64,000 nucleotides of DNA, taken from sequence record OK428535.1, one strand, 5' to 3'. Shown one piece after another: positions 37,400 to 48,072 of this stretch (its first letter is position 1; the number at the start of each line of letters is the position of its first letter). Below the pieces are notes generated by a model that saw nothing but the letters and a program-made list of their open reading frames with translations, was not told where the DNA came from and did not search any database. The position numbers and the translations under genes are program-made. Origin of the DNA: Escherichia phage vB_EcoM_Lh1B.

Positions 37400-38212
37400 A
37401 TGCTGAGAGTTATCGAACGCACGGAGAGGATTCTGGACCGAACGTGGTTGGAAGACCGTAAAGCGTTATCGTTGTTAAATGATATCGATCCTTCCACGTT
37501 ACAAGATGAACGTCGTCTTTACTACCGAATCTTTGAAGTGTTCAGTCGGGACACAGTTGCGCCTGATGCGATTGTGCTCTGTCTGGACCACGGATACATG
37601 TTAGAAGTTATCAACATGGTTCGTGCTTTAGACGCCCAGTTAACCTCGCTTGCGGATGCTTTACTCCGCTCGGCGGGGTGTAACTACGCGATGCATTTTA
37701 CTCGTTCGGAAGGGGACGAATATGCTCGCATGGGCTTTTGTTGCGAAACGATAAACTACCGCAAAATTAATACATCGGTGCCTAGCCACGATGAGGATTT
37801 CTGTGGGGATGTCAGTTCGTTGTTCGATAGTAAGAAAGCGTTCTTGGATTGGGTTAGAATGCTTTACGGTACAAGCTCTATCTACTCAACGCTCGTTATG
37901 GGTGGGAGGCTGATGTCGTGGCGGAACGCCGATAGCTACAAGTTGACAGTGCTCTCACATCGTGGACAACGCTGGGTTATTGGTGGATGGTTTACCGCAG
38001 AAGGGGTGGTTACCCTAAGCCGTGAGGAGTTCGGACTGTTGATGCATTGTATCCAATCCGAATTACCGGTGGGGGATGAATTAGTTTACACTTACCACCA
38101 ATATACTGGGGGACCAGCCGCAATGTGGTTATTAGAAAACGGTTGGCTACCCGAAAGTTATGTGTACGGACGTGCCCTGAAAACTACTAATGGAGAAAAT
38201 AATGCAAATTAA
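37400..38212 (+). CDS. hypothetical protein (270 aa)
   Basis: ORF. Confidence 0.55.
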   Translation: MLRVIERTERILDRTWLEDRKALSLLNDIDPSTLQDERRLYYRIFEVFSRDTVAPDAIVLCLDHGYMLEVINMVRALDAQLTSLADALLRSAGCNYAMHFTRSEGDEYARMGFCCETINYRKINTSVPSHDEDFCGDVSSLFDSKKAFLDWVRMLYGTSSIYSTLVMGGRLMSWRNADSYKLTVLSHRGQRWVIGGWFTAEGVVTLSREEFGLLMHCIQSELPVGDELVYTYHQYTGGPAAMWLLENGWLPESYVYGRALKTTNGENNAN

Positions 38213-38480
38213 TCGTACAGTGTCGAAGTCTAAAGAAGTCGTTTACAACGTTGAGGACGGCGACGTAATGCAGTTCCGTGCCGTTATTGACGAACAGCAC
38301 GTACTCCAAGTTGTTTATTCGAAAGAAGAGATGACTCGTGCACATAGTCGCGTGTTGGAAAAGCTCGTCGCGAAAGCCAAACAACGCGACGGCATTAAAT
38401 CCTACAACGTTATGTACGGTTATCAGTTACGTGAGGTGGAAGGGGAGCTGTTAATCACCCCTGTTCCGGTAACGGCGTAA
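38190..38480 (+). CDS. hypothetical protein (about 92-96 aa)
   Basis: ORF overlapping upstream gene end; alternative ATG at 38202. Confidence 0.45.
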   Translation: MEKIMQINRTVSKSKEVVYNVEDGDVMQFRAVIDEQHVLQVVYSKEEMTRAHSRVLEKLVAKAKQRDGIKSYNVMYGYQLREVEGELLITPVPVTA

Positions 38481-38508
38481 TTCGCCATTGTATGACCCTT
38501 AAACACCG

Positions 38509-39003
38509 TTGAGGTTAACTATGGATATGATCGAATTAGGTCAGCTCCCTCAGCACGATTTCGATTTAGGCGTGCGTCATGAGGAAGGGGCCGACGCGAA
38601 CACACTAATGGCCCGCTACTACGAGCTACTGACCGGTCAACCGTTGGACGATGAACACATCAACCGTTTTGAAAAACTGTTGGCACAACTCATCACCTCT
38701 AACGCAGAACGCATTGGCATGTTGAACGAAATGAACTTTGCCGATGTAGAGCCATCAGACGCTCAGAAGATTCTTATCGATGGTCCTGTGCCAAGCGATG
38801 AAGTACAAGACCTTCTGGCAGGTATCCGTGCAGGCTTCGATGAAGCTGCTGAGAAATACGCGGAAGAGCTGGCAGATGTCGATTTGGCTGCGCCGGTTGA
38901 CCCGAATCCGTCTGCAGAGGAGACGGCAGCTGCGAAATTGAAACTCGCACGCTTTATCTGTGCTGCTGTCCTGACAGACGACCGCGAAGAAAACCAACTG
39001 TAA
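38509..39003 (+). CDS. acidic hypothetical protein (164 aa)
   Basis: Asp/Glu-rich ORF; terminator downstream. Confidence 0.5.
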   Translation: MRLTMDMIELGQLPQHDFDLGVRHEEGADANTLMARYYELLTGQPLDDEHINRFEKLLAQLITSNAERIGMLNEMNFADVEPSDAQKILIDGPVPSDEVQDLLAGIRAGFDEAAEKYAEELADVDLAAPVDPNPSAEETAAAKLKLARFICAAVLTDDREENQL

Positions 39004-39007
39004 GGTT

Positions 39008-39045
39008 TGCCTCCTTGCCCACGGGTAAGGAGGTCCCTTTTTATT
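39008..39045 (+). terminator. rho-independent terminator
   Basis: CCTCCTT...AAGGAGG hairpin followed by TTTTTATTT. Confidence 0.6.
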
Positions 39046-39099
39046 TACATCAGTCCACTAACTTATGTGAAACAACCCACGTAAAGAGGAATTAAGAGA

Positions 39100-39417
39100 A
39101 TGTGGTTAAGTGCTATTCATCGTGACCTGCCGAAACGTAAAGTAACTATTAATGTCGATGCGGAACCGATTGAAGTCGGTATGGCTAAGTTCGATCGTAT
39201 GGAAGAAGGTCAGTTCGTCGTTGTGGATAATGATGAAAACGAATTCATGTTATTCCATCCCGAAGTTGATGCGTCTGAAATCCGCGAGGGTTCTATCTTG
39301 TTTTCTTGGCAAGACAAAGAAACTAAACAGTGGATGTGGTGCGTTGCTAACACAACCAATGAAAAAGGTACCGCGTATGCCCCAGGACAGCTTCATGTCG
39401 AACCTAAACCCCATTGA
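39100..39417 (+). CDS. hypothetical protein (105 aa)
   Basis: GAGG RBS; ORF. Confidence 0.5.
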   Translation: MWLSAIHRDLPKRKVTINVDAEPIEVGMAKFDRMEEGQFVVVDNDENEFMLFHPEVDASEIREGSILFSWQDKETKQWMWCVANTTNEKGTAYAPGQLHVEPKPH

Positions 39418-39709
39418 GCCCACGCTGACGCACCAGGAACTGCACGTCCGTTTTATTCGGGCGTTCACACCCCCGTTAGGTGGTGAGGTACACGATCGTT
39501 CCGTGGTTGCAGAAGTTAAAGGTATCGGCGAAGAACTAATGACACTGTCTAATATTGTGACGGGTGTTGAGTTCACGTTACCGTTAAACGTATTTCGGTT
39601 TATTCCGCGCGTAAACGAAACGCTGCTCATCGACCGTGTACATCATCGGATTATGGCGCAGGTACATCCTAGCCGTAAAGAGTATGTGCGCTTAGAGATG
39701 ATGGTCTAA
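39395..39709 (+). CDS. hypothetical protein (104 aa)
   Basis: In-frame ATG at 39395 within ORF-track entry 39152-39709; overlaps upstream gene by 23 nt. Confidence 0.45.
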   Translation: MSNLNPIEPTLTHQELHVRFIRAFTPPLGGEVHDRSVVAEVKGIGEELMTLSNIVTGVEFTLPLNVFRFIPRVNETLLIDRVHHRIMAQVHPSRKEYVRLEMMV

Positions 39710-39716
39710 CGCACGA

Positions 39717-39746
39717 CTTTTCAGATAGATGTTATTTTACTGAACC
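39717..39746 (+). promoter_or_regulatory. promoter-like element, copy E (TTTTCAGATAGATGTTATTTTACTGAACC)
   Basis: Same motif family; 26 nt upstream of gene 39772. Confidence 0.45.
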
Positions 39747-39771
39747 TAACTGTAAAGAAAGGAAAAAGTAG

Positions 39772-40077
39772 ATGGCTAAACAATACACAATTGTCAAACG
39801 TGCAGGTACGACTCTGCTGTACGTGGAGAAAGGTTGTGAGAACACTGCAACCGCCAAGAAACTGAATCTGCAAGGGTTTCTGTATCAAGGTCTCCGCGCG
39901 GGTTTGACCATCACTTTTAAAGGCTTACCACAGGCGAAGAATCTGCGCGTCGTACGTGCAGACGGTGTAGAGCGTGCCTTGGTAGCCGACACCCCGGTTG
40001 ATACTATCCCTGCCACTAAGAAGGCAGCGAAAGCAACCAAGAAAGTCGTCGATAAACGCAAACGCGTTGTCGCTTAA
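39772..40077 (+). CDS. small basic protein (101 aa), possibly DNA-binding
   Basis: Lys-rich C-terminus (KKAAKATKKVVDKRKR); terminator downstream. Confidence 0.5.
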   Translation: MAKQYTIVKRAGTTLLYVEKGCENTATAKKLNLQGFLYQGLRAGLTITFKGLPQAKNLRVVRADGVERALVADTPVDTIPATKKAAKATKKVVDKRKRVVA

Positions 40078-40082
40078 GTAGT

Positions 40083-40123
40083 CCCCTACCTAACTTCGGT
40101 TAGGTAGGGTTCTTTTTATTTTT
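40083..40123 (+). terminator. rho-independent terminator (UUCG loop)
   Basis: CCCTACCTAAC-TTCG-GTTAGGTAGGG followed by T-run. Confidence 0.7.
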
Positions 40124-40143
40124 AACCCTCTGGGGGATATACC

Positions 40144-40596
40144 ATGTTTCAATGTTCAGTCGTCAATGATGCGGAATTGGCCGTGTACAAGCAGCGCACA
40201 ATCCGGGCGCTGGATGCTGAAAAACCAGTCGATCTTAAAACGCGTGCAATCATTAGGGCATTTAGCGAATGGCCGAACATCGCAACCGTTTGGGCATTCA
40301 CGGGAGAAGTTCGCAAAGACGGAGACAAGCTTCGTACACGTAGACACCACAGCTTAACATTTGTGGCAACCGTGGCGGGTCTTAAAGACATTAACCATTT
40401 ATTAGAAGGATGGCAGCCGCACGAGTACGGGAAACGTTTTCAGTTAAACTTTACTTGGCTGCGTCAAGAAGGCAATGCGAATCTCTGTTATCCAAGCTGG
40501 ACGTTTAGACTCAACTATCGACCCGACCCAGATGTGATGGAAAGTGTGATGGAGCACTGGCTCGCACTCGCAATTTTTACAGAACACAACCATTAA
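40144..40596 (+). CDS. hypothetical protein (150 aa)
   Basis: ORF. Confidence 0.5.
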   Translation: MFQCSVVNDAELAVYKQRTIRALDAEKPVDLKTRAIIRAFSEWPNIATVWAFTGEVRKDGDKLRTRRHHSLTFVATVAGLKDINHLLEGWQPHEYGKRFQLNFTWLRQEGNANLCYPSWTFRLNYRPDPDVMESVMEHWLALAIFTEHNH

Positions 40597-40624
40597 ATGA
40601 AGACAACCTTAAGGAGAATTAAAG

Positions 40625-41095
40625 ATGCCAGTTTTATACGGCGGCGTGGACCTGGATGTTCTGGGTCGGTTTAAACTACGAACGTCTAAGGCGCTCGTAA
40701 ACGGTTGGGTTGAGAAAGGCGTACGGGATGCGTGTGAGGTCATTTGTAGTTATCCTGGTGCCACGACAATGTGGTCGTGTCACGGACACGGACCGTATTC
40801 TAAAAAGAACACACCGGGGGAATTTCATGTGGTGTTCGTTCTTGGCATCGGCTTTGAACACAAAGCACATGAGCTTGTCGCTGAGTTAATGAAAGCGGAT
40901 ATTCCGCCACTGTGGGATTTGTGCATGGCGAGACTCTTGTACCCTGATGAGGATTTCGTCTACGACCTCAGCGAGATCACCCTAAAGAACACGTATAACG
41001 CATGGAAAATAACGTATCGGCATCTGCATACCGAACAAACTCTTCGCGAAATTCGTAAAGTATTCCACACTGTCTGTAAAAAGGTTTTTAAGTAA
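40625..41095 (+). CDS. hypothetical protein (156 aa)
   Basis: AAGGAG RBS; ORF. Confidence 0.5.
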   Translation: MPVLYGGVDLDVLGRFKLRTSKALVNGWVEKGVRDACEVICSYPGATTMWSCHGHGPYSKKNTPGEFHVVFVLGIGFEHKAHELVAELMKADIPPLWDLCMARLLYPDEDFVYDLSEITLKNTYNAWKITYRHLHTEQTLREIRKVFHTVCKKVFK

Positions 41096-41793
41096 TGGCT
41101 AAGCAAAAGAAACCCCGTAACAAAAAGTATAACCCAAAAGCTGCTACAGAGCGTACAGCGCACACCATCGCTGAAAACGCACTGAACCGCATCACCTTTA
41201 TTGGCAGCTCCATTCGCCGCCTCGGCCCGTACGCGGGCCGCGGTTTTCACTTTACAGCAAGTCCACGTATTCGTGCTATCGCCNCAGACATGTTAGTCGG
41301 CGGATTGTTCGACCAACCGCGCCCATGGCACCTGTGGGTGATGCACCTCACCGAACTCGACAGCGGTGAGGTTGTGACTGAATCTGCCGTCGCCACGCTT
41401 GACGATTATACACTGGCTGATTTCTGCGAACATGCCGAAGAGCTGGTTAAATCGCTACGTCCTGAACAGGAAGAAGGGAAATATTTCGGTTATGCGTTTG
41501 TGGCCGCCCCGAACGAGCGGTACGACTTCAAAGCGGAAGAAGACCAACTCATTGAAAACTTCATGCATTCTGGACTACTTGATACGTCGTTACATCTGTC
41601 GGAAGAACAGCAGTTCGTTAGTCGTGCAGATATGGCAAAGTTACTTGTTGGTTATACTCGGAAGTTTGACGTGACCGTTGAACATGTCAAAGAAGTACCA
41701 GAGATTNTNANCNAGAAAGACGAGGTGGTGCTTCCGGTTGACGAGGTTGTCAGTAAAGTAGCGACTGCGATAGGGGCAACGGGGGATTACTGA
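41095..41793 (+). CDS. hypothetical protein (232 aa)
   Basis: ATG overlaps upstream stop; ORF. Confidence 0.5.
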   Translation: MAKQKKPRNKKYNPKAATERTAHTIAENALNRITFIGSSIRRLGPYAGRGFHFTASPRIRAIAXDMLVGGLFDQPRPWHLWVMHLTELDSGEVVTESAVATLDDYTLADFCEHAEELVKSLRPEQEEGKYFGYAFVAAPNERYDFKAEEDQLIENFMHSGLLDTSLHLSEEQQFVSRADMAKLLVGYTRKFDVTVEHVKEVPEIXXXKDEVVLPVDEVVSKVATAIGATGDY

Positions 41794-42002
41794 TGAATCT
41801 ACGTTGGCCGATCGTGGCTGCTGTGTTGTTTTGTATTTATATCGCCATCAGCACCAGTACCCGCACTGCAGAACGTCGCGAGACCGCAACCAGTACGTTC
41901 AGAATGTGCATTGACCGCGTAGACCCGAACAGTACCACTTATCCTGACGCGGTGAATGCGTGCCGTAAAGCAGTTGCTGAGATATTGAAAGAGGAAAATT
42001 AA
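41793..42002 (+). CDS. small membrane-anchored protein (69 aa)
   Basis: Hydrophobic N-terminus WPIVAAVLFCIYIAI; translationally coupled. Confidence 0.45.
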   Translation: MNLRWPIVAAVLFCIYIAISTSTRTAERRETATSTFRMCIDRVDPNSTTYPDAVNACRKAVAEILKEEN

Positions 42003-42229
42003 TGGAAAACCTCACGCCGGTTGAGATAGTGGCGCTATTCGATCGTTACGTATATGGACAAACGCAGGCAAAGAAAATGNTGGCGATTGCGCTACGTAAT
42101 CGATACCGTGCCAATAAACTTAACGTAGTGGACCGTATGTCGGTCCACAAACAGAACCTTTTAATAGAAGGTCCAACAGGCACGGGTAANNCNNAGTTGA
42201 TGCGTGAAGAAAAACAGAAACAAAAGTGA
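42002..42229 (+). CDS. HslU (ClpY) N-terminal fragment: AAA+ unfoldase N-domain truncated after Walker A
   Basis: LTPVEIVALFDRYVYGQTQAKK..AIALRNRYR...NLLIEGPTGTG matches the HslU N-terminus motif for motif; stop follows at 42227-42229. Confidence 0.6.
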   Translation: MENLTPVEIVALFDRYVYGQTQAKKMXAIALRNRYRANKLNVVDRMSVHKQNLLIEGPTGTGXXXLMREEKQKQK

Positions 42230-42237
42230 GGTAAAGG

Positions 42238-43245
42238 ATGACGAAGCTCGTTTCGTTTTCAGCAGGGTTGGATTCCACCTGGATAATGTATCAGCTGCTA
42301 TGCAAAGCACCGGCCAATGAAGCACGACATGTCCGTCCTGCGTATTTCTCCATGTGGAATGGAGGTAACGCGAACTTCATGGAAATTCTTTGTAGCGTGG
42401 CCATTGTTGAACGGTTGATGGATAGACACCATGCACAAACCGATCATGTTACATGGGCGGTGCTCGGGGAAGAGAACTTCCCGCCTGTCGTTACCGCTGG
42501 ATATGCTAACGGCTGGTCGCCTCTGGTTCAGCAGGGCAATGTTGTTAATGGTCTCGCTAAACTGATGTGTGGTATTACGCGCAAACAGCACCACGCCTAT
42601 GCAGTTGTTGGTTGGAATAAGCTAGATGCGTTGGAGAATAGTCTAGAGCTGGGAGATTGGACATTAGACGAGTACGCTCGCTTAAAGAACCTCTATAGCG
42701 AATTGATGTATTTCCAAGATCATGCCGGTCGCGTTCCACCGCTTCTAACACCTGCGTGGGATAAAGAGAAACTGGAAATGTGGCAGGAGTTGCCGGAAGA
42801 TGTTCGTAGGTTGGTACAGGTCAGTAACTACAACAACTACGAATTCGCGATAGACCGTGGGAATAACGTGCTCATCGTTTATGCCAATCCGTCAGCAAAG
42901 TCGCAGAATTATCGTAGTCTTGGTATTACACCGTCAGTGGGATGGGAGATTAAAATCAACGATGCTTACAGACGGGTATGGTGTTCTGCTCTTGGTAGTG
43001 CTATTTCTGCTATGGGTTTGGGCGTACCGGCTTTTGCTAACTTTAAGGACCCGGAAAGAAACCACACGNCCTTTACGGTAAGNGAAGATACTGACCGGTT
43101 ATGCATCACATCGTTTACCGCGGAAGAGTGGTGCGAGTATGCGCCACATTTTAAAGCGCTTCAGGAGAAAGAAAAAGAGANAGNNAAAAATGCCAAAGCA
43201 AGTAAAGCTGNGGACGCCCCAACTGGCGAAGNGGCGGATAGCTGA
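42238..43245 (+). CDS. hypothetical protein with N-terminal PP-loop-like motif (335 aa)
   Basis: LVSFSAGLDST resembles the SGGxDS PP-loop of ATP pyrophosphatases; 3' end N-containing. Confidence 0.4.
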   Translation: MTKLVSFSAGLDSTWIMYQLLCKAPANEARHVRPAYFSMWNGGNANFMEILCSVAIVERLMDRHHAQTDHVTWAVLGEENFPPVVTAGYANGWSPLVQQGNVVNGLAKLMCGITRKQHHAYAVVGWNKLDALENSLELGDWTLDEYARLKNLYSELMYFQDHAGRVPPLLTPAWDKEKLEMWQELPEDVRRLVQVSNYNNYEFAIDRGNNVLIVYANPSAKSQNYRSLGITPSVGWEIKINDAYRRVWCSALGSAISAMGLGVPAFANFKDPERNHTXFTVXEDTDRLCITSFTAEEWCEYAPHFKALQEKEKEXXKNAKASKAXDAPTGEXADS

Positions 43246-43573
43246 AAAACGGAATTTGCCAAAGCTGGATATAACGGTTAAGTCGGGGCTGAAATATTTG
43301 GCACCCGACTGGGACTTTCTGATGGACTACAAGAAGTCTGACAAAGGCCCCGACGCAGAAGCTGCGTATACCAAACGCTACCTGCAGAAACTTAGTCGGT
43401 TGTTTGATGAAGACACCGATAAGTTGATAGAGATTCTCCGCCAGGGCGAGGTCGTACTAATGTGTTATTGCCCACCGGGGAAATTCTGTCATCGCCACTT
43501 GCTAGTTTCCTACCTTATTGAAATCGGTGAGTGGTTCGGTTATGAAGTAATTTACATGGGCGAGTTATCGTAA
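43190..43573 (+). CDS. DUF488-like protein (127 aa)
   Basis: C-terminal VVLMCYCPPGKFCHRHLL resembles the conserved Cys...CHR motif of DUF488; overlaps upstream ORF across Ns. Confidence 0.4.
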   Translation: MPKQVKLXTPQLAKXRIAEKRNLPKLDITVKSGLKYLAPDWDFLMDYKKSDKGPDAEAAYTKRYLQKLSRLFDEDTDKLIEILRQGEVVLMCYCPPGKFCHRHLLVSYLIEIGEWFGYEVIYMGELS

Positions 43574-43584
43574 GGAGAGTCCTC

Positions 43585-43980
43585 ATGAAATTGATTATGC
43601 CTAAAACCGTTCCTAATCAGGATATGGTTACGACTACACTGTTTTCTGAATCATTACGCAACTCTGTACGTCAGACCGCTTCACGTCTAGACGTGGCAGT
43701 TGAAGAACTCGACCCNGAAGTCTTCATGAAGTATGCGTTTATTGCAGAAGGTTACGCGATCGCCCTGAGTTATGCGCGGTATGTCGATGACGTGACAGAA
43801 GCTAAACGTTATTTAGAAGGCTGTTGTCAAGTTTTCCGTGAAGAAATCACCGAGATGGAGATGGTTGACCGCGGCTTACCTGAATTTGTAAAGGTGGGTT
43901 ACGATAAGCTGTTGCAATCCATCGCGGATGAAATCGGACGTCGCGGGTTAACTGTAGTGCACAGCGCTACACTGCACTAA
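43585..43980 (+). CDS. hypothetical protein (131 aa)
   Basis: GGAG RBS; terminator downstream. Confidence 0.5.
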   Translation: MKLIMPKTVPNQDMVTTTLFSESLRNSVRQTASRLDVAVEELDXEVFMKYAFIAEGYAIALSYARYVDDVTEAKRYLEGCCQVFREEITEMEMVDRGLPEFVKVGYDKLLQSIADEIGRRGLTVVHSATLH

Positions 43981-43992
43981 CACCGTACGAGT

Positions 43993-44033
43993 AGGCTACC
44001 ACACGATCATATGTGTGGTAGCTTATTTTTTTG
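43993..44033 (+). terminator. rho-independent terminator
   Basis: GCTACCACAC...GTGTGGTAGC hairpin followed by TTATTTTTTTG. Confidence 0.65.
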
Positions 44034-44048
44034 TTTCTGGAGGCGTTA

Positions 44049-44588
44049 ATGGCAGACCGCTATCAGCCCGACCTAACACTCTCGTCGAAAGCGCTTGTCG
44101 TGGCGCTTATCAATCATGACAATAATCTGTCACTTACTGATAAAGAGATTGTGATTAGGGATATTGATGCGAACGCTTCACCAGACATCATCCCGAAGAA
44201 CACACAGGCAAGCGTGGCCAAAGCACGTAAGCCAAATGGGAAAACCGTGACAGTCTATTATGACCGGTTAAGTGCGTCTACCGTGCTAGACAGTTTTCAG
44301 CCGCTATTGGTGTCCTTAGACGGAACCGAAACGGACATTCAGCAAATTGCCAGTGTGATTAACGGTTACTGCGGTACAAACTTGTCAGCAGCAGACTTAC
44401 AGTCTGCGCCAATCGTGGTCAGCGACGATTTTACCCTGGTGAATATCACTGGCGATTCCCCAGCATGGCTTGGGACATTTATCGCAACCCTGTTTACCAA
44501 AAATGAGTACGTTCTTTCAACTGACACTGACACGGTGCTGTGTCTGGATGAGAACACTGTGCTCGTACTGACTGACGAGGAAGAGTAA
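44049..44588 (+). CDS. hypothetical protein (179 aa)
   Basis: GGAGG RBS before ATG 44049. Confidence 0.5.
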   Translation: MADRYQPDLTLSSKALVVALINHDNNLSLTDKEIVIRDIDANASPDIIPKNTQASVAKARKPNGKTVTVYYDRLSASTVLDSFQPLLVSLDGTETDIQQIASVINGYCGTNLSAADLQSAPIVVSDDFTLVNITGDSPAWLGTFIATLFTKNEYVLSTDTDTVLCLDENTVLVLTDEEE

Positions 44589-45073
44589 TGGCCAGCCCAG
44601 TTAAAAAGCAAACATTTGAGAGCTTACCATTTTATACCGATATCACCAACGTGAAAGATGGGATGTTCTTGTTTATCAAAGATGGGAAAGCGTATCAGTA
44701 CCCGCTCGAGATGTTGGGTGTCCAGAAGGTTGCTCAGGGTGTCGTTATTCGTGATGCGGCGTATGAGTTGGAAGCGGCAGCAGCCACTGATTGGTACCTA
44801 GGACTGTCGCAACCGGAAACCGATCTCACTATTAAACCTGATGGAGTATTGGGGGCATTTCGGTACACGCTCAACCTGACTATTCTTCAGGGAACGGGAG
44901 CCAACAAAATTAACTGGCCTTCCAACGTGAAGTTCCCCCATGATGCATACCCGGTGCTGTCGTACCAGAAAGGGAAATCGGACATGATTACCCTGACTAC
45001 AATCGACGGCGGTTACACCTGGAAAGGTGGCGTTAGTGGAACAGGATATACAGAATGGGTAGAAACTCCTTAA
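44588..45073 (+). CDS. hypothetical protein (161 aa)
   Basis: ATG overlaps upstream stop; operon with the large downstream gene. Confidence 0.5.
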   Translation: MASPVKKQTFESLPFYTDITNVKDGMFLFIKDGKAYQYPLEMLGVQKVAQGVVIRDAAYELEAAAATDWYLGLSQPETDLTIKPDGVLGAFRYTLNLTILQGTGANKINWPSNVKFPHDAYPVLSYQKGKSDMITLTTIDGGYTWKGGVSGTGYTEWVETP

Positions 45074-48072
45074 TCGCAGTACGGACAGGGATTAACTACG
45101 CACTGTCGCTGGCTTACGGACATCAGGACTTTGTTCGTCGAAACACCGGCTTAACTAACGACGCCCACAATGACCATTATCTGATTAACCCAGAAGGGGT
45201 GCTATCTAATAACCGGCATTTCATTGCTGACTCCATGGCAGTGTATCAACCTAATGGTGACGCCACCACAGAAGGTCAATCGTTGCTGATTATTGGCTAC
45301 TGTCACATGTACATTGCTACCAAAAACCAGATGTGGTTAGATGCGGCGATTCATGCATGGGAAGCGTACGCTACCTACTATTACGCAGGTCAGGCCATTC
45401 CCGATTCACCACAACGTTGGATTTGTAACTGGCTAGTTAACGGTAAAGAGCCAGTGCTGGCAGACTATCCGGTGCATCCGACCGAGCCAACCCACGGTGG
45501 TTATAAGTGTGTACCGGTAACGTTTACGAACGGGCGTTGCCAGATACCCCAAGGCGCACCATTCTTTGGTGAATATCTGAACAATTTCTTTTCTGCGCAT
45601 CGTGGCCATCCTACTTGGGGTGCGGTTAATGCCGACGTACAGAAAATTAAGGAATCGGAAGACGGGTTAATTGACTGGTCTAAAGTCCCTGATTACTTAA
45701 TCGTCAATCCAGAGAAACCTTACGATGTAAAAGCGTGGGTGGACTGGAACACGATGCTAAACGACCCAACCGGATATACACCAATATGGGGCGGTTCTAC
45801 CTCGAAAGGTCCGCGGTACGAACCTGACTGGTTTGTTGTGTGGACGGGTGAGAAGGTTCAAGACGGCGATGTCATCGAATCCGGTTTACCTGATGCCCAG
45901 AAAGGAACCGTACAATTAAAGGACACTAGTATTAACGGTGTGTATTTGATTAACTACGCTTCCCAGGTACCTGTAGAGCACGGCGGATATTTGTTTGACC
46001 GCAATGAGCCGTGGCACAACCGTCCGGTTCATACCCCGTTAAAAGGGTCTGTTAACCAGATGGGTAACGCGGCAGATGCGGAAGTGTGGTTTATTGATGC
46101 CTGTTATCTGCTCTGGCGTATCACAGGTGAACCGCGCTATAAAGCCGCATTAGACTCCGTGTTCTATACAGCGCACGAGTACACGTATATCGATGCGAAG
46201 GACAAGTTTTTCCGTCGTTCTAAGCTAGCCGAAACACCATTTACAGATGGTATCTCGTACGACTATAAATACCCCAGCACCGTTGAGGTCGCTTACAGTC
46301 GTGATGAAAATGGTGATATTGTGTTCCGTTCTGAGGAAGCTGTGCAGAACTTTATGGAACAGCAAGCCGTGCGTTTCAGGATAAACAGTCAATCGAAGTT
46401 ACGTGTGACATATGGCGGTGTTTGTGACAACGGTGATGCACTTGCGTGTAAAGTGATGGTGGATATTAACCCCGTCAAAGCGGATACTGAAGAAGTAAAC
46501 TGGTACGGCTGTACGCTCCCGGGATCAACATCGATGGAAGTAGAACAGCATGACATCGATTTAGGGCATCTGGCCAGAATGACCAATCCGGCCAACGGCG
46601 AAGATTACATCATTGCCGATGCGCGAGCATGTTCGGACTACGGTGGGTGTACGTGGCAGGAGAAGTTTGAGAACAACATTTACGATGGTCGTTCAGGGAC
46701 AATCGTAGAAGCGTTATTCCCGAACGACGATGCGGGTTTCATTATCGGTTTCTGGTTAACCGATGCCGGTGTTGCACCCCCACAGTCAATTGTCTATCGT
46801 GCCGATGCTGATTTCAACTTCCGTTTCGAAGATACCGACAAGTGGCGTTGGTGGTGGATGTTGCCCGCGACTAACGGGGAATGGAAACAGGTTATTATTC
46901 GCCCTGAAGACGCAACACTCTCGGGCTATCAACCTGACCACGATACCGACGTCGAACCAAAACCGGCTGCGCCAAACTATACAACTATCGATCAGGTAAC
47001 CATACTGCCCGATTCGGCTGTGGAGAATGCGCACTTTAGCTGGTATTGCGTAAACGATGTTCCGCCCCTGTTTAATGCAGACGACGGTTGGACGTTAACG
47101 TTCCGTATTGTAATTCGGGGAGGTTCTGCATTTACGGGTAAGGTGGGCGATTGTACGATAAAAGATTACCGTCTTGACTCGCTCGCGTATTGTCCAGGTA
47201 CGATACCGTTCTCGAACATTTATTCGGAAGGAACGTATCAGCTAGGTGCATGGCACGGGATGCCGTATCCCGGCTATCAGTATCCGTTTATGTACACCAT
47301 ACACACCGATGATCGCTACAAAGACTGGCTCTTAAATCAGATTCGGTTTATGCACGATTCACAAACCAACTACCAAACGCAGATAGGTGAGTTAGGTCCA
47401 GGTTGTGCGGCGTATATTTGGAACCGTTGGGATAACTACTCTTACGGCCCGGCAGATACGTGGACAACGTTCCATTGGGGCGATGGACATCCGTGGGCAG
47501 GTTATCAGCCGCGCGCGTATAACGCCGCTGCGCGTTGTTGGTACGAATTAGTTGTGCGTGGTAAAGAGGTTCCACCTGAGCTAGTAGTGTACGTTGAAAA
47601 TTGGGCTAAGTGGCTCGTAGGGTTCTTAGACCGCTTTGACAACCACACCCCGAATGAATTCCCTACGGCACCAAATAAACCGGTATGGGTAGAGAATGAT
47701 TTCACAGCACATATGTGTGCGCTCTGGATAGCAGGCAGTGCTTATGCGGCAATGGCCGGCTGTACAGTGGAAGGGTTGAGCCGTATTATGGATATGGGGA
47801 TGAAGGAGATGGGTGACAACTTCACCGTCACCGACATTCCAGGAAAAGCCATTAACGGTGCCTGGTCTCCATGGGCAAATCCCACCACGGATAACGGTCA
47901 GGCTTTTGGGTTTTATACTGGAGAAGCGATGCGTGCAATCGGGTTGTATCTCCTCTATAAAGAACACGGCGCAGGACATGATATTTATCGTGACTTGGCA
48001 ATCCCCGACCACACAACAGCCTCGCTCGATATAACGTTTACTATCCCAGACGATCCGCTCGAAACTAATTAA
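45055..48072 (+). CDS. large Trp/Tyr/Gly-rich protein (1005 aa), possible virion or tail-associated protein
   Basis: 3-kb ORF coupled to two upstream genes; terminator downstream; function not recognisable. Confidence 0.6.
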   Translation: MGRNSLIAVRTGINYALSLAYGHQDFVRRNTGLTNDAHNDHYLINPEGVLSNNRHFIADSMAVYQPNGDATTEGQSLLIIGYCHMYIATKNQMWLDAAIHAWEAYATYYYAGQAIPDSPQRWICNWLVNGKEPVLADYPVHPTEPTHGGYKCVPVTFTNGRCQIPQGAPFFGEYLNNFFSAHRGHPTWGAVNADVQKIKESEDGLIDWSKVPDYLIVNPEKPYDVKAWVDWNTMLNDPTGYTPIWGGSTSKGPRYEPDWFVVWTGEKVQDGDVIESGLPDAQKGTVQLKDTSINGVYLINYASQVPVEHGGYLFDRNEPWHNRPVHTPLKGSVNQMGNAADAEVWFIDACYLLWRITGEPRYKAALDSVFYTAHEYTYIDAKDKFFRRSKLAETPFTDGISYDYKYPSTVEVAYSRDENGDIVFRSEEAVQNFMEQQAVRFRINSQSKLRVTYGGVCDNGDALACKVMVDINPVKADTEEVNWYGCTLPGSTSMEVEQHDIDLGHLARMTNPANGEDYIIADARACSDYGGCTWQEKFENNIYDGRSGTIVEALFPNDDAGFIIGFWLTDAGVAPPQSIVYRADADFNFRFEDTDKWRWWWMLPATNGEWKQVIIRPEDATLSGYQPDHDTDVEPKPAAPNYTTIDQVTILPDSAVENAHFSWYCVNDVPPLFNADDGWTLTFRIVIRGGSAFTGKVGDCTIKDYRLDSLAYCPGTIPFSNIYSEGTYQLGAWHGMPYPGYQYPFMYTIHTDDRYKDWLLNQIRFMHDSQTNYQTQIGELGPGCAAYIWNRWDNYSYGPADTWTTFHWGDGHPWAGYQPRAYNAAARCWYELVVRGKEVPPELVVYVENWAKWLVGFLDRFDNHTPNEFPTAPNKPVWVENDFTAHMCALWIAGSAYAAMAGCTVEGLSRIMDMGMKEMGDNFTVTDIPGKAINGAWSPWANPTTDNGQAFGFYTGEAMRAIGLYLLYKEHGAGHDIYRDLAIPDHTTASLDITFTIPDDPLETN

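Follow-up and report, generated by a model that had tools for sequence, protein, structure and literature searches.

The subject of this work is a pair of overlapping genes found in a 64,000-nucleotide stretch of DNA (hereafter, the window) from Escherichia phage vB_EcoM_Lh1B (sequence record OK428535.1). The upstream gene (42238-43245; 335 residues) encodes a PP-loop protein that corresponds to gp119 of Salmonella phage SPN3US, to MGA_121 of Escherichia phage vB_EcoM_EC001 (EC001) and to the family phrog_8825. The downstream gene (43190-43573; 127 residues) encodes a DUF488-N3a protein that corresponds to SPN3US gp120 and EC001 MGA_122, and is homologous to phiKZ gp151 and 201phi2-1 gp235. 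The SPN3US names, gp119 and gp120, will be used for both from now on. The two genes lie on the plus strand and share 56 nt (43190-43245), where the frame of DUF488 is shifted by +1 with respect to that of the PP-loop gene. The best explanation for this arrangement, and a very probable one, is that an SPN3US-like phage carries here two ordinary genes, separate from each other and arranged in tandem, whose 56-nt out-of-frame overlap is conserved. The main gain is a modest annotation for SPN3US gp119/phrog_8825, hitherto 'hypothetical', and the findings leave the current understanding of phage biology unchanged.

The Overlap between gp119 and gp120

The region spanning positions 41000 to 44200 matched EC001 at 96.6% identity over 3.2 kb, in a single ungapped piece, and SPN3US and its relatives at 93-97% identity. 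The window comes from an SPN3US-like jumbo phage of the genus Seoulvirus, whose genomes are of ~240 kb. An earlier note on this DNA had described the overlap region (43181-43232) as full of ambiguous bases (Ns), and had considered that a frameshift artefact might split or merge the two genes. The description proved exaggerated, as only five of those 52 bases are Ns, two of which (43211 and 43232) fall inside the 56-nt overlap; the whole interval 42238-43573 contains seven in 1336 nt, and the window contains 259, scattered as single bases. When positions 38000-47199 were compared base by base, at a fixed offset, with the N-free sequence of EC001, 243 substitutions and 18 Ns were found, with no shift and with zero insertions or deletions (indels) over the 9.2 kb, and a three-way alignment of the window, EC001 and SPN3US over 43120-43260 was gap-free. 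Because the first comparison yielded substitutions only and the second alignment had no gaps, the Ns conceal no indel or frameshift: they are substitution-type, single-base ambiguous calls and, in practice, they need no frameshift-artefact reading anywhere in this window.

The gene structure itself is the same in the N-free relatives. Both EC001 and SPN3US annotate the equivalent two overlapping coding sequences, which in SPN3US are SPN3US_0119 and SPN3US_0120, the latter named 'DUF488 family protein' in RefSeq. The overlap has the same length, 56 nt, in the window, in EC001 and in SPN3US; ChrisDB has one of ~107 nt, Caitlin one of 113-131 nt and Asesino one of 176 nt. All adjacent pairs examined keep it in the +1 frame, down to ~31-35% identity between the PP-loop proteins. 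Conservation of an out-of-frame overlap from 56 to 176 nt contradicts the proposal that an artefact splits or merges the genes, and the two-gene overlap can be regarded, from these comparisons, as a real, conserved arrangement and not as a product of sequencing.

The shared nucleotides code for the disordered tail of gp119, which is predicted with low confidence (predicted local distance difference test, pLDDT, <50 for residues 327-335), and for the conserved N-terminal strand of the DUF488 protein, VKLWTLQLAKWR, in which the pattern VKLWT[L/P]QLAKWR lies within the overlap. With respect to the closest diverged homologue, 16 of the 19 residues of the PP-loop tail are kept, as are 214 of the 316 residues of the body, and this better conservation of the tail fits a constraint coming from the DUF488 frame. 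The conserved start of gp120 is ATG 43190, which yields exactly the 56-nt overlap, in the +1 frame, that the earlier note had reported; as the N-terminal DUF488 residues are conserved among relatives, the start is located at or before this position. A longer open reading frame (ORF) of 144 residues, from ATG 43139, was listed mechanically. This ORF is doubtful and may not exist, because the N at 43181 decides between TAG and GAG: EC001 has a T here, so that a TAG stop closes the DUF488 frame 9 nt ahead of the ATG, and SPN3US has a G, with which the GAG codon leaves the frame open. A purine-rich AAGAG stretch is placed ~10 nt upstream of ATG 43190, and it is plausible from this layout that the translation of gp120 is coupled to, or assisted by the ribosomes of, the translation of gp119. 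In such a scheme ATG 43190, which falls within the 3' end of gp119, would be the start of gp120, and ribosomes completing the upstream gene would probably be coupled to the translation of gp120 or influence it.

Two side observations concern the sequence of the pair. At position 43218, the window presents a T-to-C change with respect to EC001 and SPN3US that is silent in the PP-loop frame and makes residue 9 of gp120 a proline (WTPQ, not WT[LVIM]Q). This L9P change, which sets the window copy of gp120 apart from its homologues, affects the conserved N-terminal strand and is unique among 13 aligned homologues; it may reflect true variation or a miscalled base. In the records of phages SPFM8, 9, 12, 14, 15 and 20 (GenBank LR535906, LR535907, LR535911, LR535912, LR535913 and LR535917), each of the two genes is matched only as 3-7 separate fragments, 50-90% identical, and the proteins annotated there are truncated, whereas other SPFM records are intact at 95-98% identity. 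These six assemblies probably carry many errors in the gp119-gp120 region.

gp119 as a Predicted PP-Loop Protein

The product of the ORF at 42238-43245 begins MTKLVSFSAGLDSTW. The PP-loop-like motif SFSAGLDST pointed out in the earlier note is indeed present, at residues 6-14 of 335 (S6 to T14; 42253-42279), and it is a variant of SGGxDS(T). Its S-A-G-L-D-S-T portion, residues 8-14, comes directly after the first beta-strand, as in members of the PP-loop superfamily. The accompanying suggestion, that the gene encodes an ATP pyrophosphatase-type protein, gained support from the predicted fold and from the canonical motif carried by relatives. The prediction shows a PP-loop (HUP) domain from residue 1 to ~192, with the Rossmann-like HUP fold common to solved PP-loop enzymes, followed by a family-specific alpha/beta domain (~193-315) and by the low-confidence tail (~316-335) encoded by the overlap. 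YcfA and ThiI were among the best structural matches. The C-terminal domain (residues 193-315; 42814-43182), in which K221, Y225, G229 and W236 are conserved, had no recognisable relative among solved structures.

Conservation was evaluated in an alignment of 39 family sequences, to which the residue, motif and profile-match counts for gp119 refer. Residues G10, S13, Q98, G125, P172, K178 and K221 are invariant in this set. The canonical [ST]GG[LV]DS sequence is found in 20 of the 39 members, and the second glycine of SGGxDS, which is an alanine in the window, is a glycine or a small residue in 36. The SAGLDST of the window is replaced by TGGLDST in a clade at 31-36% identity, and diverged members carry [ST]GGLDST. 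A further motif, P172-A-W-D-K-E-K178-L-E-M-W (42751-42783), includes the invariant P172 and K178 and conforms to the pattern P-x5-K, which occurs in 32 members. Profile searches gave weak QueC matches for 13 members (best 2.4e-6), mostly covering the PP-loop, and PP-loop family matches for five (best 1.3e-5); the best direct profile alignment of the window gp119, to the MesJ/TilS PP-loop, was weak (E 0.24). The modelled fold and the relatives place gp119, as a divergent protein, in the PP-loop ATP pyrophosphatase superfamily, so that the suggestion of the earlier note holds at superfamily level, and the conservation of G10, S13, D/E12 and K178 is consistent with a predicted ATP pyrophosphatase activity.

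The family is small. A word-indexed search of 5.8 billion proteins retrieved 17 clusters, the named ones corresponding all to Salmonella or Erwinia jumbo phages, and one homologue from JGI among them carries the label QueC. A full hidden Markov model search of 1.84 billion representatives yielded 44 clusters at 50% identity, and a locus search with an 11-sequence gp119 alignment found four viral loci only. All members with an identifiable source are jumbo phages. The function of phrog_8825 is unannotated, and SPN3US gp119 and its relatives are labelled 'hypothetical' in all the phage records examined.

With the group formed by QueC, Cap9, ThiI, TtuA-NcsA, YcfA and TilS, gp119 has in common an N-terminal beta-strand followed by the S-x-G-x-D-S-T loop. 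The PF(x)4K motif of Cap9/QueC-type PP-loop enzymes has been described for Cap9 and for GMP synthase (PMC13329287); the P172-x5-K178 of gp119 has a matching spacing and would be its positional equivalent. The zinc-binding motif of QueC, defined as C(x)8CxxCxxC (PMC13329287), is present in none of the 39 gp119 members, which contain no CxxC at all, and each of the QueC motifs YxQxHxxE, VPxRN and YPDC is likewise missing from all 39. The window gp119 did not match Pfam QueC (PF06508) at gathering score, and no queD, queE, folE or transglycosylase gene was found among the neighbours scanned or in the product names of the first 50 kb of SPN3US. Membership in the QueC (7-deazaguanine) family was rejected given that all its signature motifs are absent, despite the label of the JGI homologue. 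As for the catalytic cysteine or cysteines of thiolation enzymes (ThiI, MnmA, TtuA/NcsA, LarE and YcfA), or a three-cysteine iron-sulfur (Fe-S) site, no column of the alignment has Cys in more than nine of the 39 sequences. Unlike QueC and the thiolation enzymes, gp119 displays conserved motifs of its own (QQGN, GW-x-K-x-D-x-x-E, K221 and Y225), and it departs from the PP-loop group as a whole in its C-terminal domain of ~120 residues, which has no solved-structure match, and in reaching the threshold of no Pfam or NCBIfam model. gp119/phrog_8825 can now be called a small PP-loop ATPase clade, associated so far with jumbo phages, with a novel C-terminal domain and without a QueC or thiolase signature.

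A mechanism can be proposed from these features. The S-x-G-x-D-S loop and K178 of gp119 would bind ATP, and the protein would adenylate a carbonyl or carboxylate oxygen of its substrate with release of pyrophosphate, after which a nucleophile would displace AMP. Because the family has no conserved cysteine, zinc motif or Fe-S motif, this nucleophile is more likely to be a nitrogen, in an amidation or ligase-type reaction such as those of NAD synthetase, GMP synthase, TilS and Cap9, than a sulfur supplied by the enzyme. The family-specific C-terminal domain would probably select the substrate. The gp119 family is, in this regard, a candidate for an ATP-dependent modification or ligation reaction.

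gp120 and the DUF488-N3a Family

CYCPPGKFCHRHLL occurs in the ORF that ends at 43573, and this ORF matches both Pfam DUF488-N3a (PF22751; E 1.1e-11, 45.6 bits, cut-off 27) and Pfam DUF488 (PF04343; E 3.8e-6, 28 bits, cut-off 22.2), in agreement with the DUF488-like character attributed earlier to the second gene. Its homologues, with lengths of 79-145 residues, carry the same precomputed domains. An alignment of 13 sequences revealed T29, K31, W41, Y60-T61, C92-Y-C94 and F99-C-H-R102 as invariant; the seven residues C92, Y93, C94, F99, C100, H101 and R102, present in 13 of 13, make up the conserved cysteine and the CHR active-site-like core of the 'active' subclade. A tblastn search located DUF488-N3a in 289 phage records, which include phiKZ-like Pseudomonas phages, 201phi2-1, Serratia phage PCH45, Erwinia Ea35-70-like phages and Vibrio phages, and the annotation of 201phi2-1 gp235 reads 'similar to phiKZ gp151'. 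gp120 is alike in size and stand-alone architecture to phiKZ gp151 and 201phi2-1 gp235, and it has the same C-x-C ... F-C-H-R core. gp120 is a DUF488-N3a protein and the counterpart of phiKZ gp151, and it occurs widely among phiKZ-like jumbo phages, independently of gp119. It differs from most DUF488-N3a homologues in that these do not start inside the preceding gene.

Burroughs and Aravind reportedly placed DUF488, in 2023, in the same rhodanese-phosphatase clade as DUF4326. The latter domain, which is related to DUF488, has been assigned to the rhodanese-phosphatase superfamily (Iyer et al. 2022, PMC9503650). In a transposon screen of phiKZ, PHIKZ151 accumulated 11 insertion sites and 1380 reads, compared with tens of reads or fewer for clearly essential genes (bioRxiv 10.1101/2025.11.23.690004, Supplemental Table 3), and the gene looks dispensable in the laboratory. 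gp120 provides, in this way, a link between SPN3US and phiKZ through the DUF488-N3a family, whose phiKZ member gp151 tolerates insertions. Literature searches on SPN3US gp119 and gp120 found nothing specific to them.

Relationship between the Two Genes and Alternative Explanations

Several points weigh against the reading of gp119 and gp120 as two separate, ordinary genes, the first of them encoding a PP-loop enzyme. The window gp119 has no significant sequence match in Pfam, NCBIfam, PADLOC or PDB and, with no such match in the direct family searches, the PP-loop assignment rests on the predicted fold and on the relatives. In the window clade, the alanine at the second glycine of SGGxDS means that activity is not guaranteed, and no substrate, partner or pathway gene was identified among the neighbour genes scanned. 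In addition, an overlap that is conserved across lineages at ~31-35% protein identity is also what would be expected of a functionally coupled pair. Such a pair has been envisaged as a two-component system in which gp119 would adenylate a nucleobase, a nucleotide or another substrate, the cysteine-bearing DUF488 protein would deliver sulfur to that substrate or process a phosphate on it, and the overlap would ensure co-expression, resembling ThiI, which combines a PP-loop and a rhodanese, or the way in which YcfA and its partners synthesise 6-thioguanine. This proposal, which we consider unlikely, would agree with the persistence of the overlapping adjacency in Seoulvirus, Machinavirus and Erskinevirus phages, with the presence of three invariant cysteines in DUF488-N3a and of no conserved one in the gp119 family, and with the appearance of YcfA and ThiI among the structural matches of gp119. 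The distribution of the genes argues against it. The PP-loop gene is found in 67 phage records, versus the 289 with DUF488-N3a, and a linkage scan of 80 independent IMG/VR DUF488-N3a loci, with 6-kb flanks, detected a PP-loop relative in only eight of them and none in the remaining 72. Six of the eight correspond to the SPN3US/Erwinia-phage clade, and the other two, L033 (2605-3852) and L073 (1190-1987), are distant, jumbo-phage-like contigs and have a weakly matching QueC-like gene 2-4 kb upstream of DUF488-N3a. These two loci are the sole hint of association outside that clade and, as such, count in favour of a two-component system; their co-location is probably due to chance, as two extra co-locations in 72 loci are, by a rough estimate, about what chance would produce in 250-kb genomes.

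Gene order points in the same direction. Kwan has the PP-loop gene, gp147, the HslU-like gene, gp149 and DUF488 in succession, so that three genes and 2.5 kb separate the two, and in SA002, where the PP-loop relative is located at 36 kb, DUF488 comes 107 kb away, at 144 kb. No PP-loop gene neighbours DUF488 at the metagenomic loci L011 and L012 and, directly downstream of their distant PP-loop relatives, AhC3_1 and SA002 carry genes other than DUF488. A cryptic DUF488 gene downstream of the PP-loop relatives of Aeromonas phage AhC3_1, SA002 and pEa_SNUABM_48 was ruled out by Pfam and hhalign, and hhalign also showed that the genes lying upstream of DUF488, both in 201phi2-1 (gp236) and in contig L012, are not cryptic PP-loop genes. 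Co-occurrence and co-localisation do not follow the pattern of an obligate PP-loop and DUF488 system, and the adjacency, being confined to related phages, is accounted for by their shared ancestry (synteny). A functional pair, possible in itself, is unsupported. There is little probability, likewise, that gp119 and gp120 form a new joint pathway for the modification of nucleotides or nucleic acids in SPN3US-like and Erwinia jumbo phages, with DUF488-N3a working with other partners in phiKZ-like phages; if true, gp119 would carry out an adenylation, after which the DUF488 protein, of the rhodanese superfamily, would transfer sulfur or phosphate, and the conserved overlap would force both genes to be expressed together. 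The reading as two separate genes has also been confronted with the notion that the Ns hide a sequencing frameshift, or that a programmed +1 ribosomal frameshift yields a PP-loop-DUF488 fusion. The +1 position of the DUF488 frame, the unusual length of a 56-nt overlap and the Ns inside it could be accommodated by this idea, which is nevertheless extremely improbable: the N-free EC001 and SPN3US have identical length and frames here, a TAG stop precedes the ATG by 9 nt in the DUF488 frame of EC001, DUF488 is a stand-alone gene in most phages, and neither the 44 family representatives (out of 1.84 billion proteins) nor the DUF488 homologues include a fused protein. It is also very unlikely that gp119, instead of serving phage metabolism as an enzyme, acts as a decoy or inhibitor of a host QueC-family defence, such as Cap9 of type IV CBASS (an antiphage signalling system based on cyclic oligonucleotides) or QatC of QatABCD, or that it is a structural protein devoid of catalysis. 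The signature motifs of QueC/Cap9 (the Zn cluster, [YF]xQx5E and YxDC) are all missing, PADLOC gave no match, and the invariance of G10, S13 and K178 of the ATP site across very divergent members argues for retained catalysis.

Genomic Neighbourhood

The earlier note had joined the two genes with an HslU fragment immediately upstream in a compact, unusual trio. The fragment was confirmed as an HslU-like AAA+ ATPase remnant (42002-42229) of 75 residues, which runs from the N-terminus to the Walker A sequence GPTGTG and then reaches a stop. Its match to the HslU model TIGR00390 covers positions 1-65 (E 2.8e-14; 52.9 bits, cut-off 362), and that to phrog_4339 covers positions 2-70 of 552. Related Erwinia jumbo phages have, close to the two genes, a full-length gene for an HslU-like AAA+ ATPase of 579-580 residues, and with residues 1-68 of two such proteins, Caitlin gp127 (768-2504 in L007) and Kwan gp148 (3862-5601 in L017), the remnant shares 63-66% identity. 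In comparison with the HslU (ClpY) unfoldase, it retains the N-terminal 65 residues up to Walker A, and 75 of ~580 residues are left. Since this ORF ends just after Walker A, and no complete AAA+ module was found in it at the HslU score cut-off, it represents a deletion remnant and not a functional ATPase. The idea of a trio was abandoned: the HslU piece is a remnant, DUF488-N3a is far commoner than the PP-loop gene, and the genes stand apart in Kwan and SA002.

Comparison of 42002-42237 with positions 4004-4916 of L002 showed that SPN3US is without the HslU piece and has instead gp117-gp118, which are absent from the window, and that EC001 also has the remnant. SPFM phages contain ~860 extra bases at this indel site. 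The indel differences among close relatives, namely the window and EC001 versus SPN3US, mark the spot of the HslU remnant as an indel hot-spot. SPN3US gp001 is an 'HslV family' peptidase (NC_027402, 1186-1677), and an HslUV-like protease pair seems, from these sequences, to be decaying in the SPN3US lineage. With regard to SPN3US gp117, its RefSeq label is 'head maturation protease', and the product name of Caitlin gp129 matches it. Caitlin gp129 weakly matches Peptidase_S80 (E 3.6e-8), and no direct similarity was found between Caitlin gp129 and SPN3US gp117.

The genes between 40144 and 43980 are all on the plus strand and tightly packed, in an eight-gene block bracketed by two strong terminator-like hairpins detected on that strand in a consensus scan: one at 40084-40109 (11 pairs, then a T run), which precedes the block, and another at 43989-44028 (17 pairs, then a T run). 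This disposition suggests that the eight-gene block might constitute a single transcription unit, with the hairpin at 43989-44028 being probably its end. The gene past this terminator (44049-44588) matches Pfam DUF7941 (E 2.3e-18), and the same family also follows DUF488-N3a in the metagenomic contig L011, a conserved synteny that extends into the tail-gene block.

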